The translations under genes were made by a program, and so were the position numbers. A stretch of 46,981 nt of DNA from Candidatus Aenigmatarchaeota archaeon. Its GTDB lineage: Archaea; Aenigmatarchaeota; Aenigmatarchaeia; QMZP01. Location of the stretch: NCBI GenBank assembly GCA_026397335.1, contig JAPLVB010000011.1, forward strand, positions 1-46,981, given 5' to 3'. A model generated the notes under the pieces. The model was not told the DNA's origin and did not search any database. It saw only the letters and a program-made list of their open reading frames with translations. Every line of letters begins with the position of its first letter. The first letter of the stretch is position 1. Below, piece after piece: positions 3,458-37,554 of the stretch.

Positions 3458-3469
3458 AATAGAGGTAAT

Positions 3470-4203: not shown

Positions 4204-4207
4204 CATC

Positions 4208-9181: not shown

Positions 9182-9240
9182 GAAGGTGGATTTCAGTTAG
9201 AAGGTGTCTCTTGACACCTTCAGTCTAACGTTCCACCTTC
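9182..9240. repeat. 59-nt nested-hairpin element (copy C) between convergent genes
   Basis: Outer stem GAAGGTGGA (9182-9190) pairs with TCCACCTTC (9232-9240). Inner hairpin GAAGGTGTC-TCTT-GACACCTTC (9200-9221) is identical to 16640-16661. Confidence 0.85.
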
Positions 9241-9719: not shown

Positions 9720-9852
9720 CGCTGGGAGAGGGATTTGAACCCTCGCGTGCTTTCGCACACAGGTTGTTTGCAATTTTCCGTTAACGCTTTTGCGCGAAGC
9801 GGAAAAGGGTTATAGCAAACCTGCGCCTTAAACCTAGCTCGGCCATCCCAGC
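9720..9852 (-). tRNA. tRNA-Ser(GCU), class II, with an intron of about 47 nt at the canonical 37/38 position
   Basis: Sense strand reads GCTGGGA...CAGGT-TTGCTA[intron]A-ACCTG, with variable arm TGTGCGAAAGCACGC, T-arm GAGGG-TTCAAAT-CCCTC, then TCCCAGC-G. Confidence 0.8.
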
Positions 9853-9870
9853 ACATTCATTCTAGGTAAG

Positions 9871-9943
9871 TGGACCGACCGGGATTTGAACCCGGAGCCT
9901 CTGCCATGCCGAGACAGCGATCTACCAGTTGATCTATCGGCCC
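9871..9943 (-). tRNA. tRNA-Ala(GGC), intron-less, G3:U70 present, C at position 33
   Basis: The 73-nt sense sequence GGGCCGATAGATCAACTGGTAGATCGCTGTCTCGGCATGGCAGAGGCTCCGGGTTCAAATCCCGGTCGGTCCA fits standard numbering exactly. Confidence 0.85.
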
Positions 9944-9944: not shown

Positions 9945-10050
9945 TGGGTCGGGGCAGAATTGAACTGCCGACCTCTGCCTTGTAAGGGCAGCGTCTCAGT
10001 CGGAAAGGCGTCCTTCGGACGTCCACCTATAACCACTAGACCACCGACCC
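9945..10050 (-). tRNA. tRNA-Val(UAC) with a 32-nt intron inside the D-arm (21/22 to 23/24)
   Basis: Sense strand reads GGGTCGG-TG-GTCT-AGTGGTTAT-AG[GTGGACGTCCGAAGGACGCCTTTCCGACTGAG]AC-G-CTGCC-CTTACAA-GGCAG..GGCAG-TTCAATT-CTGCC-CCGACCC-A. Confidence 0.75.
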
Positions 10051-10123: not shown

Positions 10124-10271
10124 GCATCAGTAGTCTAGTGGCAGGACACAGGCTTCCCAAGCCTGTAATGCGGGTTCGATTCGAGATTGAAGGCGGAACG
10201 ATAGAGAGAAGGCGCCGAAGCGCCTTCCAGCCGAAATCCGCCTTCCTTCCAAGAAACTCCCGCCTGATGCA
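10124..10271 (+). tRNA. tRNA-Gly(CCC) with a 77-nt intron at the T-loop/T-stem junction (60/61 or 61/62)
   Basis: GCATCAG-TA-GTCT-AGTGGCA-GGAC-A-CAGGC-TTCCCAA-GCCTG-TAAT-GCGGG-TTCGATT-[intron 10182/3-10258/9]-CCCGC-CTGATGC-A. The mature length would be 71 nt. Confidence 0.8.
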
Positions 10272-16606: not shown

Positions 16607-16661
16607 GAAGGCGAATGCCTTCTTTCGAACAGTTAGACTGAAGGTGTCTCTTGACACCTTC
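16607..16661. repeat. two tandem GAAGG/CCTTC hairpins (copy D) in a divergent intergenic region
   Basis: GAAGGC-GAAT-GCCTTC (16607-16622) and GAAGGTGTC-TCTT-GACACCTTC (16640-16661). The second is an exact 22-nt copy of 9200-9221. Confidence 0.85.
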
Positions 16662-16682
16662 TATCGGAAATCGGGTGGTATT

Positions 16683-21082: not shown

Positions 21083-21274
21083 CTATTTTTTCTTCTTGAT
21101 TTTATGTTCCCCGACTTTGTGCTTGAACATATGCCTCATGCTCATGTAGGGCATGATGTTTTTTCTCATGTCAACTTCCATCTTGTTTCTCAGCCTGCGC
21201 ATGGCAAAACCTATGCCCAGAAATAGTACTGACAGAACCAGCAGGAGAATGTCCATCACACTAACTTCAGCCAT
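21083..21274 (-). CDS. 63-aa single-pass membrane protein with a basic tail (last gene of the coiled-coil operon)
   Basis: The hydrophobic stretch ILLLVLSVLFLGIGFA is followed by a K/R/H/M-rich tail. It lies 1 nt downstream of the preceding gene. Confidence 0.5.
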   Translation of the reverse strand: MAEVSVMDILLLVLSVLFLGIGFAMRRLRNKMEVDMRKNIMPYMSMRHMFKHKVGEHKIKKKK

Positions 21275-21275
21275 A

Positions 21276-22376
21276 TCAAACCAGTTCCTTCTTTGGTTTC
21301 TTGGGAGGTGTGGGCTTCCTGACAGCAGGTTTGGAATCCTCTTTCAGGGTCTTTACAGTTTCTGTGAGGAGCTTTAGGGATTCCATCATGGGCGTCATGC
21401 CGTCGCGCAGCGCCTTTTCCACAGTTTCCATCCGGCTGTGCATGCCCGTCACAGACTCACTGTACATGCGTATCTTATCATCAAGCCTTTCTAGGCTGGG
21501 ATTTTTTACAGTCTGCATTTTCGCCACTTTATCTTCTATGGAAGCCAGCTTTTCAGTTATGCCAGCCACATTCATGTTCATGGAATTCACGGAATCCTTG
21601 AACCCCTTCATGTTCCCTGAAATCAGATCATCCACATCCATGTCATCATCAAGGTCATCCATATCAGGAGCTTTTCTTGTAGACCTCCTGAAAATACTTG
21701 TTGGTGAAGCAATGGGGGCTCCAGGCTCGTAAATAAAAGTTTCCGGGAGACTCCTTTCAAACCTTTCGGGAGCCGGAGCTGGAGGAATGGATTGCTGGGG
21801 TGCAGGAGATTTTGGCTGGAAGGCTGGAAAATCAAATCCATTAGCTCGTTTGGGAGGATCTAGCTTAGGGGGATCAGGAGGACTGTAGTTCTCCATGAAC
21901 CTCTTTGCTGTCTCCATCTTTTCGTAAAGAGACTCTTCCTTTTGCAACTCATTTTCCATTTTCCTGATTGCAAGGTTGATTTTTTCAAGGATAGAATCGA
22001 AGGTCTTTTCGTGCTTGGCTATCATGGTGTTTACCTGGGAAACCACGTCAGCTTTCAGTTTTTTTATTTCTTCATCATTTTCTTCAAGTTTTTCAGGCAT
22101 GCTTTTAGCGAATTCCGAGATTTCTGTTATCCTCTTATCCATCAGCCTGAGCACCTCTTCGCTTCTTTCGCTGGATTTTCTCGCCTCTGTTTCAATCTTC
22201 TGAATCCTTCCATTAAAGTTTTTTATTAAGTTATCCATCTGCTTTAGCTGCTTGGAGTTGGAATCCACAAGCTCCTTTACCTGCTGGGCGATTTCCCTGT
22301 ATCTGCCTTTCCAAAGCTCTTCCTTCCCCTTAAGACTCACAATCCGCTTCTCGATTTTTTTGTAAACTTCAGGCAT
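21276..22376 (-). CDS. 366-aa protein: coiled coil, Pro-rich/acidic linker, second helical domain
   Basis: The N-terminal 170 aa are heptad-like. The linker reads PPDPPKLDPPK...DMDDLDDDMDVDDL. The C-terminus is helical with repeated M/S/K. GGAAGGT..GGGTG lies upstream of the ATG. Confidence 0.6.
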   Translation of the reverse strand: MPEVYKKIEKRIVSLKGKEELWKGRYREIAQQVKELVDSNSKQLKQMDNLIKNFNGRIQKIETEARKSSERSEEVLRLMDKRITEISEFAKSMPEKLEENDEEIKKLKADVVSQVNTMIAKHEKTFDSILEKINLAIRKMENELQKEESLYEKMETAKRFMENYSPPDPPKLDPPKRANGFDFPAFQPKSPAPQQSIPPAPAPERFERSLPETFIYEPGAPIASPTSIFRRSTRKAPDMDDLDDDMDVDDLISGNMKGFKDSVNSMNMNVAGITEKLASIEDKVAKMQTVKNPSLERLDDKIRMYSESVTGMHSRMETVEKALRDGMTPMMESLKLLTETVKTLKEDSKPAVRKPTPPKKPKKELV

Positions 22377-22395
22377 GTTTGCACCCGAACCTTCC

Positions 22396-22474
22396 GATTG
22401 AAGTCGGCTCTAGCCGACTTCCTTCCAAGTGTTCGTTTGAAGGTGGCATGTAGCCACCTTCCTTCCAACAGTTC
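22396..22474. repeat. two tandem 39/40-nt hairpin units (copies E and F) in the intercistronic spacer
   Basis: GATT-GAAGTCGGC-TCTA-GCCGACTTC-CTTCCAAGTGTTC followed by GTTT-GAAGGTGGC-ATGTA-GCCACCTTC-CTTCCAACAGTTC. The stems differ by compensatory TC/GA versus GT/AC. Confidence 0.85.
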
Positions 22475-24983
22475 AATCCTCTTCTTTGAGAAGCTCGTAA
22501 AGCTTTATCTGCTCCTCCTGCCATTCCTTTATGTCTTTCTTGAGGTCTGCTATTTCCTCCCGCAGTTTTGAAATCTCCGCCTTGTCGGACTGCTGTTCTT
22601 CAAGCAGCTTTCTCATCATCTCCTCTTTATCCTCAGAGAGCCTCTTCTCGAGCCTTTTATCCTCAACGTTTACGTTCTCTATCATCTTCACAACCCTTGT
22701 TAACGCAGATTCCATACCCTTCACATATTCCTGCTGGCTGGAAACCCTTTTCTCAATCTCAGTCCTGAATTCCGCATTTTTAGCCTGCTCCTTTATAAGA
22801 TTCTGAAAATCAATATGGTGCTTTTCGACTTTTGAGCCGATGGCGGAGTCAATAGCCTGCAGCTGTTTCATCCGGGTTTCCGCCCCGGAGATCCTTTTAT
22901 CAGCAGAAACTTTCGAGGAGCTGAGCGCATTAAGCTGCTTGTTAAGGGCGGATGTTACCAAAGAAGATGTCCTGAGGCTGCTTTCCATGGACTTTACTTT
23001 CTCCAATAAGGCCTTTCTCTCTGAATAAATCTGGGATTCCATTCTTCCTAACTTAACATTTAAATCCTTGGAGAAGGAGCCCGATTTCTCAAGGCCTGTT
23101 GCGAGGGAATCAATCCTTTTCAGGGCATCTGATACTTCCTCCTCGTTTTTCTCTATTTTCTCTGAAGCAGAATACTCGTGTTTCTTAATCCTGCTGTCAA
23201 GGGACTTGGTGAACTCGTTCAGCCTGGCTATTGCCTGGACGGTGTTTCTTATATTCTCTGAAAACTTTGCCCTCTGCTCTGCCAGGTTCTTCTTCTCTGC
23301 AGATACATCCCCGGAAAGCCCGGAAATCCTTTGCCATGATTTTTCAGAAAGGCCGGTTATCTTGGATGAGAGGGCTTTCTGCTCCTCCCTTATTCCCCTC
23401 TCCAAGACAATCTTCATTTCAGCAACAGCCTTTTTCTCGGAAGCCACGTGCGAGCTGACATGCGAGATTCTGTTTTCAATATGATCATAAGATTCTGAAA
23501 GTTTTGAATCAAAATTCTCCTGCGATTCCTTGATTCTCTCATTTATCAGGGATTCTACATCCGCTATATCCCGCCTCTCGCCAGCAAGACTTTCATTAAT
23601 CTTGGCTATCCTGCCTGCAAACTCCTCATAAACCGCTTTGAGCCTGGCCTCGAGAAGTTCAGCATGCCTTTTCTGGTTCAAATCAGCATGCGCTTTCAGC
23701 TGCCCTGCCTTTGAGCTTATGCTCTCCTCAGCGCTTTTCCTGATTTCAGAAATCTTTCTGTCAAATTCAGCAATCGCCTTAAGCCTTCTTTCAATAAGCT
23801 CAACCTGCTTCTGGTCGCTTATCTCAATGTGCGATTTGAGCTGTCCCACTTTATAATCTATTGCCTCTGCTGCATGCTTCCTGACACCAGCAATCTCCTT
23901 CTCAAGCCTGCTTTCACGCAGGGAAACGGTTTTTTGGGATTCAGCTATCTTCCTGCTTATCAGGGATTCTATACTTCCCATTTCCTTTCTTTCGCTGGCA
24001 AGCCTCTCATTTATCTTGGCTACCCTGGCCGCAAAATCCTCATAAACAGCTTTCATCCGCGTTTCGAACAGTTCAGCCTGCCTTTTCTGGTTCAAATCAA
24101 AATGCGCTTTCAGCTGCCCTGTCTTTGAGCTTATGCTCTCATCAGCACTCTTCCTCAGCTCAGCCAGCCTCTTCTCAAGCTTCTCATCCTCAAGATTTAT
24201 GCTGTCCAGCCTCTTTGCGATTTTGGATACAGCGGAATCCAGCTCCTTTATTGAGGCCTGGTGGCCTGAGACTCTCTTCTCGATTTCAGCCCTGGAGAAT
24301 CCTGCATTCTCAAGCTGCTTCTTGAGAGAAACGGTGTTAACCTTGAGCTGCCTGACAAAAAGCGAGGTCCGGGAAAGATTCCTCTTCAGCTCCTCATGTG
24401 ATGCAGCCAGCACATTTACCGAGTCTGTCGCGTCTTGGAGAACCTCCTCTGAGGCTTCTGATATCTTCAGGGAAAGCCTGTCCTGTGCTGTTTTCAGCTG
24501 TGTTTCAAAATGACCTTTTGTCTCAGTCAGCCTGGATTCCAGCGCTTCGTCCTCTTTGGCTTCCTTCTCCCTCAACCTCTCTATATGGCTTTTTGAGAGG
24601 CTGGTCAGTTCACTGAGCTTTTTTATAACCTTCTCAGCCTCGAGAAGCCGGTTCTTAAGCGACTCATCTCCTGAGCGGATTTTTGAGAGATAGGAAGTAT
24701 GGATTTTGAGCTCCTGCTCAATGGCGGATATCTTCCTGGTTTCGGCCTTCAGCTCCGCGATCTGGTTTTTTATGGGAGCTGTCTCCTTGTCCACAAAATC
24801 CAGGATGCGCTTTCCGGCTTCCTCATAAATGACATAGGCTTCCCCGAGCTTCTGGCCAAGGAACCTTGTCCTCTCGATTAGAAATGCGCGATCCTTCTGC
24901 AGTTGTTCTATCAATCGCTTCTGGCTGTCAGAATTCTTCTTGAGCTTTTCTATCCCGGTGCTCAGCTCATCAATCTCTTTCAT
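22473..24983 (-). CDS. 836-aa giant coiled-coil protein with internal repeats
   Basis: Uninterrupted E/K/L/S-rich heptad sequence with a 138-aa-period internal duplication. No TM, signal peptide or NTPase motif. Confidence 0.65.
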   Translation of the reverse strand: MKEIDELSTGIEKLKKNSDSQKRLIEQLQKDRAFLIERTRFLGQKLGEAYVIYEEAGKRILDFVDKETAPIKNQIAELKAETRKISAIEQELKIHTSYLSKIRSGDESLKNRLLEAEKVIKKLSELTSLSKSHIERLREKEAKEDEALESRLTETKGHFETQLKTAQDRLSLKISEASEEVLQDATDSVNVLAASHEELKRNLSRTSLFVRQLKVNTVSLKKQLENAGFSRAEIEKRVSGHQASIKELDSAVSKIAKRLDSINLEDEKLEKRLAELRKSADESISSKTGQLKAHFDLNQKRQAELFETRMKAVYEDFAARVAKINERLASERKEMGSIESLISRKIAESQKTVSLRESRLEKEIAGVRKHAAEAIDYKVGQLKSHIEISDQKQVELIERRLKAIAEFDRKISEIRKSAEESISSKAGQLKAHADLNQKRHAELLEARLKAVYEEFAGRIAKINESLAGERRDIADVESLINERIKESQENFDSKLSESYDHIENRISHVSSHVASEKKAVAEMKIVLERGIREEQKALSSKITGLSEKSWQRISGLSGDVSAEKKNLAEQRAKFSENIRNTVQAIARLNEFTKSLDSRIKKHEYSASEKIEKNEEEVSDALKRIDSLATGLEKSGSFSKDLNVKLGRMESQIYSERKALLEKVKSMESSLRTSSLVTSALNKQLNALSSSKVSADKRISGAETRMKQLQAIDSAIGSKVEKHHIDFQNLIKEQAKNAEFRTEIEKRVSSQQEYVKGMESALTRVVKMIENVNVEDKRLEKRLSEDKEEMMRKLLEEQQSDKAEISKLREEIADLKKDIKEWQEEQIKLYELLKEED

Positions 24984-26818
24984 GACTTCAGCTCCCTAAG
25001 AAGCTCGCTTACCTTCACCCTCTCCCTCTTTATCCTCTCTTCCACATGCTTCCTCTCGGTAACAGTCTGGTTCAGGACGGATTCAAGCCGGGCCTTGTCA
25101 GCCGCGTTTTGAGCTTCAAGCATGGACTGCCTCTCATTAATGGCAGCAATATCACTCTCCATTTTTTTCACCATAACGGCAAGATTCTCCTTATCCGCAA
25201 GTTTCTTGCCAACGGCTTTCATGGAAATCTCCGTTTCTGTAAGCTTGTCTCTCAGGGGTCTTATGTCAGAAATAATCTTCTGGACGGCTTCGAGATTGTC
25301 TGAAAGCTTGTCAAACCTCGATTCCGCATCCCTCAGGTTCTGCTCAAGGACTATGGTGCGCTCCCTCTCCGCGGCCATCTTGGCATCCAGGCTCTTGGTT
25401 GCAGCAGCCAGATTCTCAGACCTCTTGGCAAACACGTCTTTGAGGTCAATCACCTTGTTTATTGTGGAAAACTGGTCGCTCATCTTCCTTGAAATATCGT
25501 TTATGGATGACTCGAATGTTTTCTGCCTTTCCTTCAGGCTGGCAATCGTATCCGTGTTTTTGCCTGAGTCCTTTTTGACAGCCTGCACATCATAATAAAC
25601 CTTTCTTTCTATATCCCTGGTCCTGTCCGCAATCCATTTCCTCAGGTTCTCGGGAGCCTCCATGTCCTCTATCATTCCAAGAATCTCCCTGTCCTTCTCA
25701 ACCAAAGCCCTTGCCTTCTCATCATTAAGCATAAGGCGCTTCTCTATCTCCTGCATCCTGTTCTCAAACAGCTCATTAACAACATCCTTTACGCTGGTCT
25801 CTATCATCCTCGGAGAGGCGAACTCCTGCATTTTTGCAAGCTGGTTCTGGTACTTCTCCATCATCTTGTCCATGCGCTTGTGAATGTTCATCTTGATGAT
25901 TGCAAGCCCCCCAAGGAACTTCGCCTCCTCTTCCGCAAACTTCTTGTAAAGCTTGTCCTTCTCGAGCCTGAGCTCGTTTATCGTTTCCCGGAATTTCTTG
26001 AGCTCCCTCACTTCCCCGTCCATGAGCGAGATTCTCTTTTCAAGCTCGTTTGTTGATTCCCTGTTGGCCTTCAGGCTGTTAATTATGGGATCTATCCTCT
26101 TCCTCATCTTCCTGCTAACTGTCTCCGGAATCAGTTCCTCCATAAGCTCGTCTGCGGAGAAAACTATCTTCTTGAGCTTCTGTATGTTTTCAGCACCCAG
26201 CTTGTCATTTATTTCCCTGAACTGTAACTCAAGCGCTTTCAGCTTCTCCAGCTCCTTGAGCTTGTCCTCTGCAGAAGTAAGCCTGTATTCGACTTTCTTG
26301 CTCATGTTGCTGAGCGCCATATTAATGGAATCAATAGTTTTGCGAACGTCATTAAGCTCGCTCTCAAAATCAACCTGCTCCCCAAAAGAAGCCAGCCCCT
26401 GGGAAACCGCTCCAGGCTGTTTTGGCTGGTATAGGGGGCTGCTCAATCTCTCGTTAATCTGGGCTATCTTATCACCCAAATCCTTTATCCTTTCAAGCTC
26501 CTTGAGCTTGTCAGATATCTCCCCAAGCTTGGGGTCAAACTTTTCCTTCATCAGGATGGCTACCTGTTTCTTGACCTCGTCTTTGTCCTTACCCGAAGAT
26601 ACTGACTCCTCAAGCTTTCTTATTTTTGCATCGAATTTTTCCCCCATATCCTTCAGGGCACTCTCTACCCCTGAATCAGGCTTCTGGTCAGATAGGCTCT
26701 CTATTATTTCAGCCAAGCCCTTGCTCTTGTCAGCAAGTTCTGCCTTCTCTTTCTCCAACTGCACGATTTTTTTCCTGCTTTCTTCAAGTTCCTTGTCAAC
26801 TAGCTGGCCTTCAGCCAT
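24980..26818 (-). CDS. 612-aa giant coiled-coil protein
   Basis: Heptad-like sequence throughout. Has a 4-nt ATGA overlap with the downstream gene. Confidence 0.65.
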   Translation of the reverse strand: MAEGQLVDKELEESRKKIVQLEKEKAELADKSKGLAEIIESLSDQKPDSGVESALKDMGEKFDAKIRKLEESVSSGKDKDEVKKQVAILMKEKFDPKLGEISDKLKELERIKDLGDKIAQINERLSSPLYQPKQPGAVSQGLASFGEQVDFESELNDVRKTIDSINMALSNMSKKVEYRLTSAEDKLKELEKLKALELQFREINDKLGAENIQKLKKIVFSADELMEELIPETVSRKMRKRIDPIINSLKANRESTNELEKRISLMDGEVRELKKFRETINELRLEKDKLYKKFAEEEAKFLGGLAIIKMNIHKRMDKMMEKYQNQLAKMQEFASPRMIETSVKDVVNELFENRMQEIEKRLMLNDEKARALVEKDREILGMIEDMEAPENLRKWIADRTRDIERKVYYDVQAVKKDSGKNTDTIASLKERQKTFESSINDISRKMSDQFSTINKVIDLKDVFAKRSENLAAATKSLDAKMAAERERTIVLEQNLRDAESRFDKLSDNLEAVQKIISDIRPLRDKLTETEISMKAVGKKLADKENLAVMVKKMESDIAAINERQSMLEAQNAADKARLESVLNQTVTERKHVEERIKRERVKVSELLRELKS

Positions 26819-26820
26819 AA

Positions 26821-27144
26821 TCAGTCACCCAGCCCCTTTATGAGCTTCTCTATAACAGCCTCCTGCCTCTCTATACTTGCCTGTATCTCCTTCATTTTGT
26901 AGTCCATATCGCTCATTCTCAATTTGGATTCAGAATCTGTTGTACCTTTATTCAATTCTTTAGTCATTTCCGGCATGCTTAGTGAAGGAAGAAACCTGTA
27001 GTAATGCATGCGTTCCTGGTAAACCTGGTTTATTTTAAAGAACTCATACGTCAGGAAACATACAGAGCCTACCAGAACTATGAGGAGAGCAAGTTCTAGC
27101 ATAATAAAATATTGAAATCCATGTTTATTAATGAATTTGTACAA
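26821..27144 (-). CDS. 107-aa membrane-anchored coiled-coil protein (first gene of the operon)
   Basis: One TM helix (LELALLIVLVGSVCFLTYEFF), then a helical tail. The start could be the TTG at 27144 or the ATG at 27102. Confidence 0.5.
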   Translation of the reverse strand: MYKFINKHGFQYFIMLELALLIVLVGSVCFLTYEFFKINQVYQERMHYYRFLPSLSMPEMTKELNKGTTDSESKLRMSDMDYKMKEIQASIERQEAVIEKLIKGLGD

Positions 27145-27288
27145 CTATAATAGTATAGAAGTATTAAAAAAATGGCCTGAAAAAAACCGCGCCAAAATAA
27201 TGTGCCAGAACGAAATCGAGGGGGGTCGCCACGACTATGACCCCTTTCGGGAAAAATTATAGTATGGCCATATAACTGAAGCTAGAAA

Positions 27289-27945
27289 GTGAGACGCATG
27301 ACGAAACTGACTGACTATAAGAATTTCTGGATGATTTGGCTGAGTGCCGCAGGAAGGCCACAAGGTGTATCGCTTTTTTCCATCCAGAATGACTGGAACA
27401 TAAAGACAAACTACCTTTATCATGAAGAGACTGGAATTGGCAAGCCTTTATACGCAGCTATGATTAGAGAAGGGTTTCTTGAAAAACAGGGAAAAAAGCT
27501 CAAGGCCAAGTTTGGTTGGATTCCAGATTTTGTTAAAGAAAAATACCAACCTTTGGGGCATGTGGACTACTGGATCCCATACACAATTATAAGTACAAAA
27601 TGGCCCCAGATCCAGGCTTTCATAGAGAAGAACGCGCATACCTTGTTTGACATAAATAACATAAGGATTCTCTACAGGAATAACAAGAACATACTCGGGA
27701 ATTCGGGCCAGCACATATTCACTGACGTATTCATTTATGTGCTTTTCAATAATATCACCATATTCTGCAAGAAGTACAAGGCGGAGATAGTCCTGCGCAT
27801 TCTCCTGACGACTTTCTCAGTCTTCACAGACCGGGATATCATGAACTATATGCGGCATCTCAATACCCAGCTCAGCAAGGAAGTGCCCCTGATAATAGGG
27901 GATGAGGCTGAAATGAATGCGCTTATGTGCCCGTTCAACTGGTGA
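27289..27945 (+). CDS. hypothetical protein (possible N-terminal winged-helix)
   Basis: 218-aa ORF, A/T-rich, no motif recognised. Confidence 0.4.
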   Translation: MRRMTKLTDYKNFWMIWLSAAGRPQGVSLFSIQNDWNIKTNYLYHEETGIGKPLYAAMIREGFLEKQGKKLKAKFGWIPDFVKEKYQPLGHVDYWIPYTIISTKWPQIQAFIEKNAHTLFDINNIRILYRNNKNILGNSGQHIFTDVFIYVLFNNITIFCKKYKAEIVLRILLTTFSVFTDRDIMNYMRHLNTQLSKEVPLIIGDEAEMNALMCPFNW

Positions 27946-28279: not shown

Positions 28280-29053
28280 ATGACCCGAATAATAGGCATA
28301 GTTTCTGGGAAAGGAGGGGTTGGAAAAACCACAATAGTCGCCAACCTTGGGGCAATACTTGCATCCCAGTACAAGAAGCGCGTGATAATAGTTGACTGCA
28401 ACATCACCACCTCCCACCTCGGCCTTTACCTTGGAATGTATTATCATCCTATCTCCTTGAATCAGGTATTGAGGGGAGAAGCCTCCATGGACGATGCGAT
28501 ATATGATTACACAATTCCCGGGCTCAAGATAATTCCCGCCTCCCTCTCTCTGGACGAGCTCAAGGGCGTGGATATAGGAGAGCTCAAATACAGAATAAAG
28601 GACCTTTTCGGAAAGGCCGACTTCGTTTTGTTAGATTCTGCTCCGGGACTTGGTAAGGAGGGCATGGCAACCCTGAGAGCAAGCGATGAGCTTCTCTTTG
28701 TGACAACACCTTTTGTCCCGCATGTAATTGATGTCATAAAAGCGCACCAAATCGCGAATGAGGTAGGAGCCAAGTCCTTAGGGATTGTTCTGAACATGTC
28801 CGGCGAGGGCCGCCACGAGCTCACTCCGCAGGACATAGAGAAGCTGGTTGAGATTCCTATTATCTCCATAATCCCCAGGGACAAGCACATCCTGAGAAGC
28901 CTTGCGTCCAAAATCCCAGTGGTTGACCTGAACCCGAATTCCCCGGCAAGCAGGGAGATTAAAAAACTCGCGGCTGTCATGTTAGGCGAGGAATACAAGC
29001 CCATCAGGCTCAGAAGGATGGAAAGGATAGCCAGAGCGCTCAGGATGAAGTGA
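28280..29053 (+). CDS. minD: MinD/ParA-family ATPase (archaeal MinD type)
   Basis: Deviant Walker A SGKGGVGKTT, Walker B VLLDSAPG. GGGTGG lies 5 nt upstream of the ATG. Confidence 0.85.
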   Translation: MTRIIGIVSGKGGVGKTTIVANLGAILASQYKKRVIIVDCNITTSHLGLYLGMYYHPISLNQVLRGEASMDDAIYDYTIPGLKIIPASLSLDELKGVDIGELKYRIKDLFGKADFVLLDSAPGLGKEGMATLRASDELLFVTTPFVPHVIDVIKAHQIANEVGAKSLGIVLNMSGEGRHELTPQDIEKLVEIPIISIIPRDKHILRSLASKIPVVDLNPNSPASREIKKLAAVMLGEEYKPIRLRRMERIARALRMK

Positions 29054-30501: not shown

Positions 30502-31044
30502 ATGAAATCCGGGAGTATCCAAATGAAAACCAACGGGAGCAACACATCCTTAAAAGGAATAACTATTTTTTTGTTTTCCGAGAAAGACTACGCCAGAAAA
30601 ATGGAGAATATAATGCTTTCCACCTCTTCTGCCTTCAGCAGGATATGCTACGTTTCCCTCAACAAGCCCTACTCAGTCATTTCAGAATCACTAAAAAAAC
30701 AAGGAATCGACACAAAAAAGTTCTTTTTCATAGACTGCACTGAAAACCACGCGGATGAAAAGGCAGGCCAGGTGGTTAATGTCTCCTCCCCGAAGGCCCT
30801 CACGGAAATGAGCATAACAATAGGGAAGGTCCTGGAACTTGGAAAAATAGAGGCCATGGTTTTCGACTCCCTCTCCACGCTCCTCGTTTACGAAGACCCC
30901 TCCACCGTGGTGAAGTTCACGCACTCCCTCATATCCTCTCTAAGAGGCAAGAAAGTGTCAGGCGTTCTTGTGTGCCTGGAAGGCGGGAAAGGCACGGGGT
31001 TGATCAAGGACATATCCATGTTCGCTGACAGGGTGGTGAGATAA
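30502..31044 (+). CDS. KaiC/RecA-fold protein lacking the Walker A P-loop (MEDS-like)
   Basis: Aligns to the KaiC-like gene at 45327-46004 (ICYVSLN versus CCYVSLN; MVFDSLSTLL). Where KaiC has VSGGPGTGKT, this protein has FLFSEKDYARK. Confidence 0.6.
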   Translation: MKSGSIQMKTNGSNTSLKGITIFLFSEKDYARKMENIMLSTSSAFSRICYVSLNKPYSVISESLKKQGIDTKKFFFIDCTENHADEKAGQVVNVSSPKALTEMSITIGKVLELGKIEAMVFDSLSTLLVYEDPSTVVKFTHSLISSLRGKKVSGVLVCLEGGKGTGLIKDISMFADRVVR

Positions 31045-31070
31045 CGGGCAAAAAGAACGAAGATGCGGCG

Positions 31071-33161
31071 GTGCAAAGGAATGGATTATCTCTGCAAAGC
31101 GAGGACAAGTTCAGGGCAATCTTTGAGGGAACGAATGATGGGATACTTGTAGCTGATGGCAAAACAAGGAAATTCATTCTCGCGAATTCCAGGATATGCG
31201 AAATAACAGGCTACTCCCAGGAGGAACTGCTCAAATTAAACGTGAACAGCATACATCCCAAAAAAGACTTGCCTCACGTAATCAGCGAGTTCACGAAACT
31301 GCTGCAGAAAAAAATAATCACTGCAAAAGGCATACCCGTGCTGAGAAAAGGCAAAGGAGTGGTTTACTGCGATATCAATTCCAAGATTGTAAAAATCGGC
31401 GGCCGGGAATGCCTAGTGGGATTTTTCAGGGACATAACCGAGCGCAAACAGATGGAGGATGAGTTACGAAAAAGCGAGCAAAAGCACAGGTTCCTAATGG
31501 ACAACATAGACGAAATCGTTCTTATAATCAGCAAAACAGGCAATATCGTCTTTGCCAATAACAAGGCACTGAAAACCTTCGGATATTCCAGCGAGGAGAT
31601 AATAGGCAAGTCCATCGTGAGTTTCCTGACTAAAAGATCAATCAAGAAGGCAATGTACGCGCTTGCACAGGAGTTCATGGGGAAGCACCAGGCCGAAATG
31701 GATGTTGAAGCCAGGACAAAATCAGGGGAAATCCGGACACTGGGCGTTGCACCGTCATCGATTCCGGTTTACGAGAAGGGCAAAATGGTAGGCATACAGG
31801 TGAACTGCAGCGACATAACCGAGCGCATGAAGGCGGAGGAAGCGCTCAGGGAAAGGGAGGAAATGTACAGGCTGCAGTTCGAAGAGGCAATTGACGCCAT
31901 TTTCATAGCAGATGCAAAGACGGGGATACTGGTAAACTGCAACCGGGCGGCAACAAGGCTGGTCGAGAGGGACAAATCAGAGATTATAGGCCAGCACCAG
32001 AGCATACTTCACCCCCCGGAAAAAACCAGGGGAGAATTCACCAACACCTTCAAAAAGCACATGAAAGAAGCCGAAGGCCAGACCCTGGAAGCCAAGGTCA
32101 TAACCAAAAGCGGCAAACTGAAGGACGTTGCAATAAAGGCCAACTTCATCGAACTGGGCGGGAAAAAATACCTTCACGGCATATTCAGCGACATCACTGA
32201 GCGCATGAAGGCGGATGAGGCTGTAAAGCAGAGCGAGCAGAAGCTTTCCCAGATAATACAGGGAAGCTCTGTTGCAACCTTCGTGATAGACAAGAACCAT
32301 AAAGTTATTTACTGGAACAGCGCATGCAAAAACCTGACAGGAATCCCGGCAGAAAGGATGATAGGGAAGGACGTCCAATGGTCGGCATTTTACAAGGAGA
32401 AGAGGTCGCTGCTGGCAGACCTGATAGTTGATGGCGCAAAGGAAAGCGAGATAAATAAGCTTTATGAAGGCACGTCCAGGAAATCCCAAGTCCTTCAAGG
32501 GGCATACGAGGCAGAGAGATTCTTACCGAAGCTTGGCAAAAGCGGCAGATGGCTTTTGTTCACTGCAGCACCCCTGAAAAACAGCAAAGGCCAGATAACA
32601 GGGGCAATCGAAACACTCCAGGACATAACAGAGAGGAAGGGCGTGGAAGAGGAGCTTAAAGAAAGCGAGGAACGGCACAGGATACTGTATGAATCCTCCT
32701 GGGATGCGATCATGACGCTTGCACCTCCGAGCTGGCTTTTCACTTCAGGAAACCCGGCTACAGTAAAGCTGTTCGGCGCAAGGAGCGAGAAGGAATTCAT
32801 CACCAAGGGGCTCTGGGACGTTTCGCCGGAATGTCAGCCTGACGGGATTCCCTCTTCAGACAAATCCAAGAAGATGATTGAGAAGGCCATGAAAGAGGAC
32901 TCCAACTTCTTCGAATGGACCCACAAGAAGCTAAGCGGCGAAGACTTTCCCGCGACAGTCCTGCTCACCAGAATGAAGATTAAGGACCAGACATTCCTGC
33001 AGGCGACCGTAAGAGACATAACAGAGCAGAAGAAAGCCGAGGAGGAGCTCAAGTCAAAAGTCGAAGAGCTGGAGAGGTTCAACAAGCTTGCAGTGGGAAG
33101 GGAGCTCAAGATGATTGAACTGAAGAAGAGGATTGGGGAGCTGGAAAAGGCAGGAAAATAA
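31071..33161 (+). CDS. 696-aa cytoplasmic sensor with five PAS domains and no enzymatic output domain
   Basis: Five units each end in DITE[RQ]K-x-[AMV]E[ED]-L. The C-terminus is KVEELERFNKLAVGRELKMIELKKRIGELE. GTG start. Confidence 0.8.
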   Translation: MQRNGLSLQSEDKFRAIFEGTNDGILVADGKTRKFILANSRICEITGYSQEELLKLNVNSIHPKKDLPHVISEFTKLLQKKIITAKGIPVLRKGKGVVYCDINSKIVKIGGRECLVGFFRDITERKQMEDELRKSEQKHRFLMDNIDEIVLIISKTGNIVFANNKALKTFGYSSEEIIGKSIVSFLTKRSIKKAMYALAQEFMGKHQAEMDVEARTKSGEIRTLGVAPSSIPVYEKGKMVGIQVNCSDITERMKAEEALREREEMYRLQFEEAIDAIFIADAKTGILVNCNRAATRLVERDKSEIIGQHQSILHPPEKTRGEFTNTFKKHMKEAEGQTLEAKVITKSGKLKDVAIKANFIELGGKKYLHGIFSDITERMKADEAVKQSEQKLSQIIQGSSVATFVIDKNHKVIYWNSACKNLTGIPAERMIGKDVQWSAFYKEKRSLLADLIVDGAKESEINKLYEGTSRKSQVLQGAYEAERFLPKLGKSGRWLLFTAAPLKNSKGQITGAIETLQDITERKGVEEELKESEERHRILYESSWDAIMTLAPPSWLFTSGNPATVKLFGARSEKEFITKGLWDVSPECQPDGIPSSDKSKKMIEKAMKEDSNFFEWTHKKLSGEDFPATVLLTRMKIKDQTFLQATVRDITEQKKAEEELKSKVEELERFNKLAVGRELKMIELKKRIGELEKAGK

Positions 33162-33173
33162 AGGAGGGATGGC

Positions 33174-34181
33174 ATGTTAAAATGCAGGATTGGTTTCATG
33201 CAGAAAATGCTGCTCGCAACTTTATTGATTGCGGTTCTGTTCCTGAGCGGTTGCACAACGCAAACAGGGAAGGTTTACCATGTGGGCATCCTGTCTGGCC
33301 TGGACGCTTTGTCCGGCATAGCCGATAGCTTTAAGGCCAAAATGACAGAGTTAGGCTATATAGAGGGTAAAAATATTGTTTATGATATACAGAAGACAAA
33401 CTTTGAGCCTGATAAAGAGCAGCAAATTCTCAAGAAATTTGTAGACGATAAGGTTGACTTGATTTTCACGTTCCCCACTGAGCCGGCTGTAGCAGCCAAG
33501 GCGGCTACCCAGGGAACAGGAATTCCTGTGGTTTTTTCCTTCGCTACAATAGAAGATAATAATCTTGTAGATAGTGTGCGCCAGCCTGGCGGGAACATAA
33601 CTGGCGTGCGGGAGCCTGGTCCAGACATTTTTGTCAAGCGCTTGGAGATTTTACATGAGTTGGCGCCTCAGGCCAAACGAGTTTATATAACTTATAACCC
33701 AAATGCCCCTCCTGTCCCGCCAGCGCTTGATGTATTGCGTAAGGCAGCTCCTCTAATGAATGTAACATTAGTGGAGAATCCTGTTGCAACCGTGGAAGAG
33801 ATTGAGACTGATTTGCAGGCGCGAAACAAATCAGCTGATATTGGCATGGACGCCATACTAATGATGGGTGAACCTCTTTCTGTCTCGCCTCCTGCTCTTG
33901 AAGCAATGACTAAGTTTGCAACCGAACACAAGATACCCATTGGAGGAGTTGGAAGTTACACAATCAGAGGGAGTATTGTTTTTAGTTATGAGATTGTGCT
34001 TGATGATATGGGTAAGCTGGCTGCCCCTCTCACCGACAAAATCCTCAAAGGCACACCGGCCGGCACCATCCCAGTCGTCACACCCGAGGCAAAGTTGCTG
34101 ATCAATTACAAACTGGCTAAAGAGCTGAATCTGACAGTGAGCGAAGGCCTGCTGGCCCGTGCGGATGAAATAATTCGTTAG
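33174..34181 (+). CDS. lipoprotein, ABC-type substrate-binding protein of the COG2984/ABC_sub_bind family (paralog 1)
   Basis: Lipobox-like LSGC. KVYHVGILSG..., KVDLIFTFPTEPA, GIPVVFS, PGGNITGV, and GTPAGTIPVV...LNLTVSEGLLARADEIIR. Confidence 0.8.
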   Translation: MLKCRIGFMQKMLLATLLIAVLFLSGCTTQTGKVYHVGILSGLDALSGIADSFKAKMTELGYIEGKNIVYDIQKTNFEPDKEQQILKKFVDDKVDLIFTFPTEPAVAAKAATQGTGIPVVFSFATIEDNNLVDSVRQPGGNITGVREPGPDIFVKRLEILHELAPQAKRVYITYNPNAPPVPPALDVLRKAAPLMNVTLVENPVATVEEIETDLQARNKSADIGMDAILMMGEPLSVSPPALEAMTKFATEHKIPIGGVGSYTIRGSIVFSYEIVLDDMGKLAAPLTDKILKGTPAGTIPVVTPEAKLLINYKLAKELNLTVSEGLLARADEIIR

Positions 34182-34194
34182 AGAGGTGATAAGA

Positions 34195-35208
34195 ATGGTT
34201 AGAGATAAAAGAATGGGATTTGGATTGCAGGCAGTTCTTGCATCCTTGCTGGTTGCAGTCATTTTTCTTGGAGGCTGCACCACCACACAGAATGAGAAGG
34301 TTTATCATGTCGGGGTCCTGTCCGGCCTGAGTTTTGTTGCCGACATAACGGACGGCTTAAAGGCCAAGATGACCGAGCTAGGCTACACAGAGGGAAAGAA
34401 CATAGTCTATGACGTGCAGGAAACGAACGTTGACCCGGCCGCGTACCGGCAAGTCCTCAATAAATTCGTAGCCAATAAGGTGGACTTGATTCTCGCGTTT
34501 CCCACTGAGGTCGCTCTAGAGGCTAAAGCAGCCACCCAAGGGATAGGCATCCCCGTGGTTTTTGCCAATGCCGTTATAGAAAATACAGGCCTGGTCAATA
34601 GCGTGCGCGAGCCGGGAGGGAACATCACGGGCGTGCGCTTCTCAACCTCGGACCTTGCGTTACGGCGTTTTGAAATCTTGCACGAGCTAGCGCCGCATGC
34701 CAAGCAGATGTGGATACCATATCAGCGGGGTTATCCCATCGTAGCCAGCCAGTTAGGGGCATTGCAACCAGTAGCGGCATCAGCGGGAGTAACAATGATA
34801 GAGGTCCCAGCCGACAATGCAACAGAACTTGAGACTAATTTGCAGACGCGCGTGAAATCGTCTGATATTAGCTCCGATGCCATATTATGTATAGTTGAAC
34901 CTCTTATGACGATGCCCGATACCCTTGCGGTCCTCGGTAAGTTTGCAGCTGAACACAAATTGCCGATTGGTGGTTGTCCAATATCGAATAATAGTAGCGG
35001 ATCGATTTTTATGACGGCGCCTGACAATGTTGACGTCGGCAAGCTCGCTGCATCCATAGCCGACAAAATCCTCAAAGGCACCCCGGCCGGCACAATCCCG
35101 GTTGTCACACCCGAGTCAAGACTACGAATAAATTATAAAGTGATTCAAGAACTGGGACTGAACGTCAGCGAGGGCCTGCTGAACAGGGCAGATGAGATAA
35201 TCCGTTAG
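34195..35208 (+). CDS. lipoprotein SBP, COG2984 family (paralog 2)
   Basis: Same motifs, lipobox LGGC. I prefer the ATG at 34195, which has GAGGTGAT upstream as in paralog 3. The track starts at the GTG at 34186. Confidence 0.8.
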   Translation: MVRDKRMGFGLQAVLASLLVAVIFLGGCTTTQNEKVYHVGVLSGLSFVADITDGLKAKMTELGYTEGKNIVYDVQETNVDPAAYRQVLNKFVANKVDLILAFPTEVALEAKAATQGIGIPVVFANAVIENTGLVNSVREPGGNITGVRFSTSDLALRRFEILHELAPHAKQMWIPYQRGYPIVASQLGALQPVAASAGVTMIEVPADNATELETNLQTRVKSSDISSDAILCIVEPLMTMPDTLAVLGKFAAEHKLPIGGCPISNNSSGSIFMTAPDNVDVGKLAASIADKILKGTPAGTIPVVTPESRLRINYKVIQELGLNVSEGLLNRADEIIR

Positions 35209-35222
35209 AGAGGTGATAGGAA

Positions 35223-36236
35223 ATGATTAGAAATAAAAGAACGGGATTCGGATTGCAAGCAGTTCTTGCATCCTTGCTGGTTGCAGTCATTTTTCTTGGA
35301 GGCTGCACCACCACACAGAATGAGAAGGTTTATCATGTCGGGGTCCTGTCAGGCCTGAGTTTTGTTGCCGACATAACGGACGGCTTAAAGGCCAAGATGA
35401 CCGAGCTAGGCTACACAGAGGGAAAGAACATAGTCTATGACGTGCAGAAAATGGACTTTGACATGGTTGCATACAGGAGCGCACTCAACAAATTCGTGGA
35501 TGACAAAGTCGACGTGATTGTCGTGTTTCCCACAGAGGCGTCCATGGAGGCAAAAAAAGCCACAGAAGGAACAGGCACCCCCGTGGTTTTCACCTTTGCC
35601 CTCATAGAAGGGATGGGCCTCGTAGACAGCATACGTGAACCAGGCGGAAACATAACCGGCGTGCGCTATCCCGGCCCGGACATCGTGCTCAAGCGTTTTG
35701 AGATCATGCACGAGATGGTGCCGCAGGCCAAACGATTCTTGGTTCCCTATCAGCGCGGTTACCCCATCGTTGACCCCCAGTTAGAGGCGCTGCGCCCAGC
35801 TGCTGAAGCAGCAGGTATAACGCTGGTAGAGCTTCCCGCCAGCAACGCAACAGAACTTCAAGCCTACCTTGATCCGCGAAACAAATCGGCCGATGCGGGC
35901 TTCGATGCCATCCTGATAATAGTCGAACCTCTGGCCGTGACGCCTGACGCCTTCGGAGCGCTTGGCAAGTTTGCGTATGAGCATAAGCTGCCGATTGGCG
36001 GAGCCCTGATGGCAGCGGGGGATTATAAATCCATCTTTGGCGTAAACGTCAATGACATTGCGGTTGGCAGGCAGACCGCACCTCTGGTCGACAAAGTTCT
36101 CAGAGGGACCCCAGCTGGCACCATACCAGTTGTCTCAGCAGACAGCTATTTCCAGATTAATTACAAAGCAGCTCAGGCATTCGGCCTGAACGTGAGCGAG
36201 GGCCTGCTGGCCAGGGCGGACGAGATAATACGATAG
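35223..36236 (+). CDS. lipoprotein SBP, COG2984 family (paralog 3)
   Basis: Same motifs. The first ~75 codons are nearly identical in DNA to paralog 2. Confidence 0.8.
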   Translation: MIRNKRTGFGLQAVLASLLVAVIFLGGCTTTQNEKVYHVGVLSGLSFVADITDGLKAKMTELGYTEGKNIVYDVQKMDFDMVAYRSALNKFVDDKVDVIVVFPTEASMEAKKATEGTGTPVVFTFALIEGMGLVDSIREPGGNITGVRYPGPDIVLKRFEIMHEMVPQAKRFLVPYQRGYPIVDPQLEALRPAAEAAGITLVELPASNATELQAYLDPRNKSADAGFDAILIIVEPLAVTPDAFGALGKFAYEHKLPIGGALMAAGDYKSIFGVNVNDIAVGRQTAPLVDKVLRGTPAGTIPVVSADSYFQINYKAAQAFGLNVSEGLLARADEIIR

Positions 36237-36256
36237 CCTCATGAAATCAGGATAAA

Positions 36257-37537
36257 ATGCCCACGCAGAATGAAGCGAAAAAGGGAAGGAATTTCCGCAG
36301 CCTCACGGTTACCTTAGCTCTCGCTTTCCTGGCGCTGAGCACGGTAGTCCTGCTGATTGCCAGCGGCCTGGAGCTGTATTTCAATTTCCAGACCCAGCAG
36401 CAGGTCATTGTCAGCCAGCAGCAGCTCATTGCCCAGGACGCAGCCAACACGGTAAAGAGCTTTGTCCAGGATAAATTCAGCATGATGGAGTCAACGGCCA
36501 GCATTAGCAGCATGGCTATTGAGAACCAGGAACAGCAGAAAAACGTCTTGGACAAGCTGCTTGGCCGCGAACCGTCGTTCCGCCAGCTTGTTCTGCTGGA
36601 TGCGCAAAACCGGAAACTAGCGGAAGTTTCGCGCCTGTCGCAATCTGCTTCCAGAATAGACAGCAGGCTGGACAGCAATTTGTTCGCCCAGATACAAGAC
36701 GGTGAAAAATACGTCAGTTCGGTATACATAGACAATATCACAAGCGAGCCCATGATGATAATGACCGTTCCAGTCAAGGACATCTTTGGGGATTTAAAGG
36801 GGACCCTGGTTGCCGAAGTGAACCTGAAATTCATGTGGGACCTAGTGGGCAGGATAAAGATTGGCGATAAAGGCGTGGCCTATGTGGTTGACAGGCAGGG
36901 CGATCTGATAGCTTTTGGCGACATCAGCCGCGTTTTAAGGGGAGAAAATCTAATCCACCTGGAAAAGGTAAACGATTTTGTCAGCAGCAAGGGATTGATT
37001 ATCACGGGCGAATCCGGGACATCAAAGGGCATCCAGGGCAATTCAGTAATAGCCAACTATGCACCTCTTGGCATGCCCGACTGGGCGGTTGTGGTTGAAT
37101 TGCCGGTCGAGGAGGCATACCAGGCTGTAGCCCAGGGGGTTGTAATGTCAGCATTGATTATGCTTCTGGGCATTTTCCTGGCCGTCGTGGCAGGCATCTA
37201 TCTCTCAAGAAGAATCACAAGGCCGATAATAGGCCTGAGGGATGCCGCAATAAAAATAGGCCAGGGCGCACTGGACACGCAGATAGAAGTCAAGTCAAGG
37301 AATGAGATAGGGGACCTGGCAAGCGCTTTCAGGCAGATGATGGATGACCTGAAGAAATCCAGGGCAAAGCTGGAGCATCACCAGCAGGAGCTTGAGAAGA
37401 ATGTGGACGAGAGGACAAAGGAGCTGCAGGCAAAGGTCGAAGAGCTGCAAAAATTCAACAGGCTTGCGGTGGGCAGGGAGCTCAGGATGATAGAGCTGAA
37501 GAAGAGGATCAGGGAGCTGGAAAGTAAGCGCCGATAG
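36257..37537 (+). CDS. membrane sensor: TM, Cache-like extracytoplasmic domain, TM, HAMP, coiled coil; no output domain
   Basis: Two TM helices flank about 270 aa. The HAMP region is ITRPIIGLRDAA...EIGDLASAFRQMMDDL. The C-terminus is KVEELQKFNRLAVGRELRMIELKKRIRELE. Confidence 0.75.
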   Translation: MPTQNEAKKGRNFRSLTVTLALAFLALSTVVLLIASGLELYFNFQTQQQVIVSQQQLIAQDAANTVKSFVQDKFSMMESTASISSMAIENQEQQKNVLDKLLGREPSFRQLVLLDAQNRKLAEVSRLSQSASRIDSRLDSNLFAQIQDGEKYVSSVYIDNITSEPMMIMTVPVKDIFGDLKGTLVAEVNLKFMWDLVGRIKIGDKGVAYVVDRQGDLIAFGDISRVLRGENLIHLEKVNDFVSSKGLIITGESGTSKGIQGNSVIANYAPLGMPDWAVVVELPVEEAYQAVAQGVVMSALIMLLGIFLAVVAGIYLSRRITRPIIGLRDAAIKIGQGALDTQIEVKSRNEIGDLASAFRQMMDDLKKSRAKLEHHQQELEKNVDERTKELQAKVEELQKFNRLAVGRELRMIELKKRIRELESKRR

Positions 37538-37554
37538 AAAGGGGAAATGAGAAA

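Follow-up and report, generated by a model that had tools for sequence, protein, structure and literature searches.

A phylum-wide Aenigmatarchaeota gene cluster of coiled-coil rods and small membrane anchors linked to MinD and a winged-helix protein

In the 46,981-nucleotide (nt) stretch of DNA analyzed here (the window), five minus-strand genes, which we call A to E, encode two small membrane proteins and three large helical proteins. An earlier note on this DNA had singled them out as an operon for a possible membrane-tethered filament or scaffold. Our sequence comparisons indicate that this five-gene feature is real, conserved and more coherent than first seen. Judged by gene order in relatives, a MinD ATPase and a winged-helix protein, F, are conserved partners of A–E and belong to the same apparent operon in most of those relatives. 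We tentatively read A–E as the structural half of an Aenigmatarchaeota-specific module, ordered F, MinD, A, B, C, D, (E), which may build a cytoplasmic membrane-tethered coiled-coil scaffold acting as a spatial organizer. We would put this reading at somewhat under an even chance.

The named homologues of B and F all come from metagenome-assembled genomes of Candidatus Aenigmatarchaeota (DPANN/Nanobdellati), and the window carries archaeal markers, including tRNAs that probably contain introns, HMG-CoA reductase, diphthamide synthase and an archaeal-type MinD. On these sequence grounds, the source of the window is an Aenigmatarchaeota (DPANN) archaeon.

Conservation of the cluster and its linkage to F and MinD

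Loci retrieved with B display a recurrent string of genes. A transmembrane (TM) protein of ~90 residues (A) is followed by a rod of 610–950 residues (B), a second rod of 620–1416 residues (C) and a helical protein of 290–1130 residues (D), and a TM protein of 50–68 residues often closes the string. The order A-B-C-D(-E), typically with 4-nt overlaps, is kept in lineages down to 24–30% identity in B. Absence of the arrangement in relatives had been named in the earlier note as grounds for dropping the proposal; what we find is an order kept across the phylum.

F (215–228 residues) adjoins every B-retrieved locus that has an upstream flank, and MinD does likewise, except in locus L005. Retrieval based on F, with one genome per species, gave 61 loci; the non-redundant set, including the earlier loci and the window, contains 58, and MinD stands next to F in 50 of them. 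Among the F-centered loci flanked by no less than 4 kb at either end (n = 33), 30 contain MinD and 28 contain a B-like rod gene. Distinct loci with F, MinD and A also number 33, and in 23 of these F, MinD and A follow one another on one strand, with gaps of 10–85 nt between F and MinD and of 28–166 nt between MinD and A. The window represents the minority arrangement (10/33), in which A–E are inverted and diverge from F-MinD. The description of MinD as a neighbor about 1.1 kb away is thus right for the window, whereas in the same-strand loci MinD lies directly upstream of A.

The intergenic region between A and F is strongly conserved, even in comparison with L005, where B is only 38% identical. 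It contains an 18-mer, TATACTATTATAGTTGTA, at 27140–27157 on the minus strand, with the palindromic core ACTAT-T-ATAGT. The 18-mer lies ~55 nt upstream of the ATG of A, and a T-rich TATA-like stretch precedes it. When up to 3 mismatches are allowed, 24 occurrences are found in 1.13 Mb of related loci, all of them inside this control region; in the window the 18-mer occurs once, against 0.02 expected. It sits 55 nt upstream of A in the divergent loci and 121 nt upstream of F in the same-strand loci. Since the same cluster-specific element heads both gene arrangements, it ties A–E and F-MinD together as one regulon.

The control region also carries a conserved GCGAC-CCCCCTCGATTTCG block, an F-proximal ATACTATAA box and a conserved block, GGTGCCAGNGCNAAATCGAGGGGGGTCGC, on the plus strand at about 27195–27225. 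Phylum-wide, the regions upstream of F contain two related ATAGTAYA boxes, which are spaced by ~100 nt and separated by a G-run block. A search for an RNA element in the control region gave no Rfam match, and RNAalifold returned −5.85 kcal/mol with an unfavorable covariation term. In view of the missing Rfam match and the unconvincing covariation, we read the conserved block as a DNA-level element. The A–F control region is a candidate binding site for F. The features of the cluster are collected in Table 1.

Table 1. Positions of the cluster genes, the C–D spacer and the control region in the window (aa, amino acids; ORF, open reading frame).
Feature	Coordinates	Strand	Description
Gene A	26821..27102	−	Predicted bitopic membrane anchor, 93 aa from ATG 27102; mechanical ORF up to TTG 27144
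Gene B	24980..26818	−	612 aa, all-helical rod
Gene C	22473..24983	−	836 aa, rod containing repeats
C–D spacer	22377..22472	−	96 nt, two hairpins in tandem
Gene D	21276..22376	−	366 aa, helical, Pro-rich/acidic linker
Gene E	21083..21274	−	63 aa, bitopic membrane protein
A–F control region	27103..27288	strandless	186 bp, between diverging A and F
Gene F	27289..27945	+	218 aa, winged-helix protein
MinD gene	28280..29053	+	Archaeal MinD ATPase, TIGR01969

Anatomy of the anchors, the rods and their partners

The five minus-strand ORFs of the earlier note were recovered at the coordinates of Table 1, gene A there being the mechanical ORF 26821–27144, and their junctions were found as it had described them (a 2-nt gap, an ATGA overlap, the 96-nt spacer and a 1-nt gap). 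By hydropathy, A and E likewise have one TM segment each, and the three large proteins have none. Signal peptides are absent from B, C and D, and a motif check finds neither Walker A nor Walker B motifs in any of A–E.

The size of A requires revision. It had been given as a 107-residue product starting at TTG 27144. The A family has 32 members among related loci, and 30 of these 32 relatives are 87–93 residues long and begin with M-L/I-E right at the TM helix. Because the relatives are short and start in this way at the TM helix, the true start is most likely ATG 27102. The protein consists of an N-terminal TM helix, a basic flank, a variable linker and a C-terminal amphipathic helix (RIERQEAVIEKLIKGLG), which is its conserved portion. 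The TM helix begins at residue 2–3 with no positive charge ahead of it and is followed by Y-E-F/L-x-K/R.

Gene E encodes an acidic N-terminus, a single TM helix and a strongly basic tail (isoelectric point (pI) 10.6), in agreement with the first description of a 63-residue single-TM protein with a basic tail. Under the positive-inside rule, both A and E are predicted to be N-out/C-in, with their tails in the cytoplasm. Small E-like TM proteins (50–68 residues, same architecture) terminate the operon in two clades, and E is missing from a large clade in which the D protein ends …AMIFE. The picture of rods bracketed by two small anchors holds for the window and fails for this large clade.

The B protein is conserved over its N-terminal ~260 residues and its last ~10 residues (ELLRELK), with a variable middle. 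Residues 125–150 form a nearly invariant non-helical motif, LSSPLYQPKQPGAVSQGLASFGEQ, and the composition includes 10 Pro and 17 Gly. In the AlphaFold2 (AF2) model, with a predicted local distance difference test score (pLDDT) of 65, B is ~95% helical and comprises 8 helices, the longest spanning residues 390–611. Its family is narrow. A profile search against 1.84 billion representative proteins found only 30 clusters with an E-value of at most 1e-30, a number that rises to 59 at E ≤ 1e-10, and the mid-range matches are generic coiled coils, for example a mussel protein and a YadA-like adhesin. In relatives, B keeps to 610–950 residues.

The periodicity of C is mixed, 3.5 plus about 3.6–3.67 residues. 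C contains an internal duplication of 138 residues, which is visible in the DNA too, where a direct repeat of 222 nt (23543–23764 and 23957–24178) shows 79% identity between copies 414 nt apart. A conserved N-terminal head of ~75 residues (…KLGEAYVIYEEAGKRILDFV…; …YEEAGKRILDFV…) identifies C orthologues in every lineage, and the C-terminal tail is conserved as well. A search for homologues of the head gave 7 short fragments and was uninformative. The length of C in relatives ranges from 620 to 1416 residues, and the internal 138-residue repeat block differs in copy number. Where B is 83–86% identical, C has 1216–1377 residues, compared with 836 in the window, and the gap corresponds to the internal repeat block. 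Since relatives this close have a C that is 380–540 residues longer, the repeat copy number must turn over quickly. To judge from these lengths, C is a variable-length repeat rod, not a fixed filament subunit.

The earlier note had called B and C essentially uninterrupted heptad sequence. Both are helical as stated, and the wording is too strong: B is broken into 8 helices, and C has mixed periodicity. Its figure of about 1800 residues of coiled coil holds only as an upper bound. C differs in length by over 500 residues among relatives in which B and D are nearly constant, which should rule out a single in-register bundle of B, C and D. An end-to-end or head-mediated association of the rods, with C as a spacer, appears more plausible than one bundle.

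The D protein was found as originally described, with a coiled coil, a Pro-rich/acidic linker and a second helical domain. The N-terminal coiled coil has a conserved start (…KKIEKRIVSLKGKEELWK…), the linker covers residues ~166–252 (20 prolines within 166–237, then DMDDLDDDMDVDD), and the C-terminal helical domain is followed by a basic Pro-rich tail. Positional orthologues of D measure 289–1131 residues; their N-terminus is conserved phylum-wide, and the linker is restricted to the clade of the window. BLASTP detected no significant paralogy among B, C and D. The sole link among the rods is a weak profile similarity between the head of C and the N-terminus of D (E about 3e-4). None of the three proteins contains a cysteine.

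Folding confirmed that the spacer between C and D bears hairpins. It has a minimum free energy of −44.7 kcal/mol (z = −6.9) and forms two tandem GC-rich hairpins, with UUGGAAGGAAG ahead of each. The close relatives L069 and L070 keep the first of them, with compensatory changes in the stem; in L001 the spacer is missing. Both copies in the spacer belong to a dispersed family of GC-rich hairpins, GAAGG-NNNN…NNNN-CCTTC, which also occurs in the window at 9189–9229, 16632–16672 and 10237–10252, with no U-tract after it. These hairpins may be elements of the repetitive extragenic palindromic (REP) type, 3'-end stabilizers or attenuators.

F is the best-conserved member of the cluster and is seen only in Aenigmatarchaeota. 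Its family comprises 75 clusters at 41–92% identity, all of 215–228 residues, with 37 invariant positions and a pI of 9.0–9.9 throughout. The AF2 model (pLDDT 89) combines a basic N-terminal winged helix with a novel all-helical C-terminal domain. The F family has no match in Pfam and no sequence match in the PDB, and Foldseek returned nothing below E = 0.4 for the F model, whose structural neighbors are weak winged-helix similarities of the MarR/PadR/IclR type.

The MinD protein scores 225.3 bits against TIGR01969 (cut-off 201.75), which places it in the archaeal MinD family. Its deviant Walker A motif, GKGGVGKT, occupies residues 10–17 and includes the signature lysine. Nearly all orthologues have a conserved amphipathic and basic C-terminus after GEEY.P; this predicted helix resembles the membrane-targeting sequence of bacterial MinD. 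Some of the deep-branching, Aenigmatarchaeota-like genomes with F-MinD are labeled Nanohaloarchaea or Nanobdellati, and L056–L059 and L062 have F without MinD. From its distribution, F-MinD looks like the older core of the cluster.

None of A–E matches any Pfam, NCBIfam or PADLOC family at its cut-off. In these curated libraries A–E and F yielded only sub-threshold coiled-coil noise, which for A–E consists of matches to the coiled-coil parts of SMC, Rad50, EzrA, ATG17, Baculo_PEP_C, SpiroCoCo, LmuB, JetC and ZorA. The B profile was run against PDB sequences, where its best match is the coiled-coil tail of reovirus sigma-1 (6GAO, E = 0.0018). We regard this match as noise, because comparable matches go to STAT3 and GCN4 fusions. 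Foldseek gave zero matches for the B model, whose confidence is too low for interpretation. Profile and structure searches of this kind had been proposed in the earlier note, and for the B family they found no homology to a characterized family in the PDB or by Foldseek. Its statement that no known family could be recognized stands for the libraries, the PDB and Foldseek; coiled-coil proteins of DPANN archaea have, however, already been noted in the literature (PMC11291902).

Individual candidates were rejected as follows. SMC, Rad50 and archaea-specific SMC-related proteins are reached with 11–36 bits against NCBIfam cut-offs of 300–729, through the coiled-coil arm only and with no Walker A or B motif. 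No Pfam hinge domain is present in B, C or D, and the lack of cysteine in these proteins makes a CxxC Zn hook impossible. The automatic Joint Genome Institute (JGI) names 'chromosome segregation ATPase' and 'SbcCD ATPase subunit' do not suit B, C and D, which have no ATPase head and no cysteine. For ESCRT-III, PspA and Vipp1, no Snf7 or PspA_IM30 match in Pfam appears at E ≤ 1 for A–E, and B–D measure 366–836 residues. The motif, Pfam and NCBIfam results thus uphold the view of the earlier note that these are neither SMC/Rad50 proteins nor of ESCRT-III/PspA size. D scores 18.4 bits against the EzrA cut-off of 39.6 (PF06160), and none of the three rods contains a TM helix. For intermediate-filament-like or coiled-coil-rich proteins, D reaches 12.1 bits against the cut-off of 40 for PF00038 (Filament), and B and C do not match. 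SpiroCoCo (NF047514/NF047515) gives 18.7 bits for C and 27.2 bits for D against curated cut-offs of 75 and 125. Of the PADLOC defense systems, LmuB, JetC and ZorA are matched at only 12–25 bits and in their coiled-coil tails. IMG/VR, searched for signs of a viral origin, yielded no relatives of either B or F.

Neighboring genes

In many lineages, three genes lie upstream of F on the same strand, encoding an FtsK/HerA-superfamily ATPase, a coiled-coil protein of ~540 residues and a surface protein of ~2000 residues. The ATPase contains TM segments and shows weak P-loop matches to CedD, HerA, TraC and TraD. The surface protein carries NPCBM_assoc and MG2 domains and is adjacent in 31 of the 58 loci. 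At one end of the window, positions 46–510 (+) encode a C-terminal fragment of a TM FtsK/HerA-superfamily ATPase, and positions 535–2256 (+) encode a 573-residue coiled-coil protein with repeated SHOCT-like 'G.IS..EY…' motifs.

PilB/TadC homologues are adjacent in L005 only, and not in the window or in roughly 60 other loci. In L005, a complete type IV pilus-like set (179–5472) stands beside F at the usual place of MinD, and consists of two pilin-like TM proteins, one PilB/T2SSE protein and two TadC/T2SSF proteins. This set is the sole link in our data to the pilus-associated loci of DPANN coiled-coil proteins (CCPs), which are discussed below.

Downstream of MinD and RadC in the window lies a signaling cluster (30502–39381, +). 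It encodes a KaiC-like DUF7504 protein, a protein with five PAS domains, three tandem ABC_sub_bind paralogues (33174–36236, with a period of about 1027 nt), a dCache-HAMP protein and a HAMP histidine kinase. In the close relatives L001, L069 and L070, MinD likewise has the DUF7504-PAS-kinase part in synteny beside it. Elsewhere in the window, Rfam detects three adjacent minus-strand tRNA genes at 9720–9852, 9871–9943 and 9945–10050, of which those of 133 and 106 nt probably contain introns. ARAGORN reports one of these three (tRNA-Ala, 9870–9943), plus a tRNA-Gly on the plus strand at 10125–10194.

Candidate functions and comparison with known systems

We propose that the cluster works as follows. 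A and E would insert N-out/C-in, so that their tails, helical in A and basic in E, would face the cytoplasm. B, C and D would be extended helical rods, reaching up to roughly 90, 125 and 55 nm at full extension. The rods would join through their conserved end modules, with C as an evolvable spacer whose length is set by the gain and loss of repeats. Meanwhile, an ATP-bound MinD dimer would sit on the membrane through its C-terminal amphipathic helix, and would either position the scaffold or be recruited by it. By binding the palindrome-containing control element, F would act as a regulator and perhaps also as an adaptor linked to DNA. Taken as a whole, the module would then serve as a spatial organizer or landmark for an envelope-associated structure. 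As its cargo we lean towards a surface or host-contact apparatus, because the MinDs of Haloferax place surface machinery and a giant surface-protein gene is found upstream in about half of the loci.

The membrane-tethered scaffold of the earlier note survives in this proposal, since the charge layout of the anchors and the lack of signal peptides in B–D fit it; the unit, however, is larger and includes F and MinD. The gene anatomy, its conservation and linkage, the predicted helicity and the cis-element are direct results of the comparison, and the roles given above are drawn from anatomy and synteny.

Several findings weigh against the scaffold. The predicted structure of B has low confidence (AF2, predicted template modeling score 0.20). 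The deep-branching loci L046, L047 (CP070804) and L051–L060 have F-MinD with no adjacent rod genes; from this distribution, F-MinD can apparently work without A–E, or with those genes elsewhere. A common C-terminal 'LLKELxG' docking motif of A, B and C was considered and rejected, as the profile of the A C-terminus misses the termini of B and C. The argument for a surface cargo is weaker in the window itself, which has no giant surface-protein gene adjacent and has its HerA-like/coiled-coil pair ~19 kb off; the close relative L068 does have the giant surface-protein gene. In addition, synteny within a single phylum can partly come from shared ancestry instead of function.

The main rival is a chromosome-segregation or division apparatus, in which F would bind a centromere, MinD would act as a ParA-like motor, and A–E would provide a membrane tether or a division-site scaffold. 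Its analogues would be ParABS with PopZ, TipN or Scy, RacA-DivIVA-MinD, and PomXYZ. Division is the classical role of bacterial MinD, and much of the layout is suggestive, as a basic winged-helix protein is encoded directly upstream of the ATPase in the manner of a partner, a conserved palindrome-containing DNA element lies beside F, and a membrane-bound FtsK/HerA-superfamily ATPase is often a neighbor. Nevertheless, we hold this apparatus to be unlikely. The ATPase, which has a membrane-targeting-like helix, belongs with the canonical archaeal MinDs and not with the ParA or SegA type, and to our knowledge the MinD paralogues of Haloferax do not control division. Moreover, the 18-mer is a single promoter-proximal site with no centromere-like repeat array, and the neighborhood contains no FtsZ, SepF, Cdv or SMC genes. 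We also considered a MinD-driven cortical cytoskeleton of membrane-anchored heteromeric coiled-coil rods, with C as the evolvable ruler subunit, which would be placed by MinD and F and would mark the site where the giant adhesin and an FtsK/HerA-type translocase assemble. This seems to us rather improbable. If it were true, the marked site would organize the organelle with which a DPANN symbiont makes host contact or takes up material, and the cluster would supply the first partner set for an archaeal MinD.

On the other hand, there may be no dedicated machine at all. F would then be a local transcription factor, MinD an unrelated housekeeping neighbor, and B–D generic fast-evolving coiled coils inherited together. 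All the evidence for coupling is indeed synteny inside one phylum, the deep-branching members lack rod genes beside F-MinD, and L005 has rod genes and F without MinD. We consider this account quite improbable, as the adjacency outlasts an inversion and at least 3 different flanking contexts, genes overlap by 4 nt, the gaps between MinD and A go down to 28 nt, and the same cis-element stands at the head of both arrangements. Furthermore, conservation at the ends of B, C and D contrasts with drift in their middles, which argues for selected interactions. Extracellular attachment fibers, with B, C and D as exported Aenigmatarchaeota versions of the DPANN CCPs that mediate host contact, strike us as very improbable. 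The fibers could account for the PilB/TadC/pilin cluster directly beside F in L005, for the giant surface-protein gene adjacent in many loci and for the weak sigma-1 match (6GAO, E = 0.0018), an entry cited by Hamm et al. too; that match is coiled-coil noise comparable with STAT3 and GCN4 fusions. B, C and D have neither a signal peptide nor a TM segment, the tails of the anchors are predicted to be cytoplasmic, a cytoplasmic MinD shares the transcription unit, and type IV pilus genes are adjacent in one of ~60 loci. SMC/Rad50-like DNA maintenance or anti-phage defense, as the automatic JGI names suggest, has in its favor those names and a set of weak matches, some to models of SMC, Rad50 and archaea-specific SMC-related proteins (ASRP), others to JetC, LmuB and ZorA in their coiled-coil portions. 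It is effectively excluded, given scores far below the cut-offs and on the arms only (36 bits against 729 for SMC), the absence of Walker A/B motifs, hinge and Zn hook, the lack of PADLOC system components and of relatives in viral contigs, and a stable chromosomal housekeeping context (HMG-CoA reductase, Dph2).

The CCPs of DPANN archaea are among the closest described proteins. These long coiled-coil proteins without recognized domains were reported from cluster-2 DPANN, including Aenigmarchaeota, likened to the reovirus sigma-1 attachment protein (6GAO) and read as attachment structures; the loci had been picked because genes of type IV pili or archaella lie next to them, and a P-loop NTPase is listed in locus 1 (Hamm et al., 2024; PMC11291902). 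The rods described here may overlap those loci, and sigma-1 is also the top, weak PDB match of our B profile. In contrast to the CCP loci, pilus genes are adjacent here in one of ~60 loci, and it is MinD, F and two small anchors that recur as conserved partners. A MinD-F-anchor architecture, a cis-element, a variable ruler subunit and a cytoplasmic topology are absent from the main text of PMC11291902.

In general build, the cluster recalls EzrA, the spectrin-like proteins, crescentin and FilP, which are membrane-tethered, all-helical and repeat-built, as is proposed for this cluster, and Pfam gives D weak matches, at 18 bits for EzrA and 12 bits for Filament. Unlike the proteins of this cluster, EzrA is a single polypeptide with its own TM helix; the scores here are far below the cut-offs of 39.6 and 40 bits, and Foldseek finds no structural match.

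Within archaea, the cluster can be compared with Haloferax volcanii, whose MinD4 and MinD2 place surface machinery at the poles and do not position FtsZ. These proteins and the MinD of the window fall into one archaeal family (TIGR01969), and the window protein has a predicted C-terminal amphipathic helix. We know of no dedicated coiled-coil/anchor operon or F-like partner described for haloarchaeal MinDs, nor, more generally, of partner proteins for any archaeal MinD.

In bacteria, ParA/MinD ATPases operate with coiled-coil proteins in several systems, including PomXYZ in Myxococcus, MinD-MinJ-DivIVA in Bacillus, ParA-Scy/FilP in Streptomyces and ParA-TipN/PopZ in Caulobacter. In those systems, as is proposed for the Aenigmatarchaeota cluster, a deviant-Walker-A MinD/ParA ATPase is paired with long, membrane-sited coiled-coil proteins that give spatial information, and the rods resemble Scy and FilP in having conserved ends and variable, repeat-rich middles. 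The cluster differs from the bacterial systems in showing no sequence or profile similarity to them, in its separate small bitopic anchors, in its novel winged-helix partner F and in its DPANN host. None of the sequence-defined rod families tested accommodates B, C or D, and the best reading is a non-homologous archaeal counterpart of the ParA/MinD plus coiled-coil design.

The cell biology of DPANN archaea (division, polarity and host attachment) is almost unexplored, because few of them have been cultivated. Against this background, the cluster is a defined, phylum-wide candidate module with an ATPase, a novel partner of DNA-binding type, two anchors, three rods and a conserved cis-element. 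If the MinD-guided scaffold is true, it would offer a handle on envelope organization in ultra-small symbionts and would represent an independent archaeal invention of the bacterial landmark design that combines an ATPase with coiled coils.

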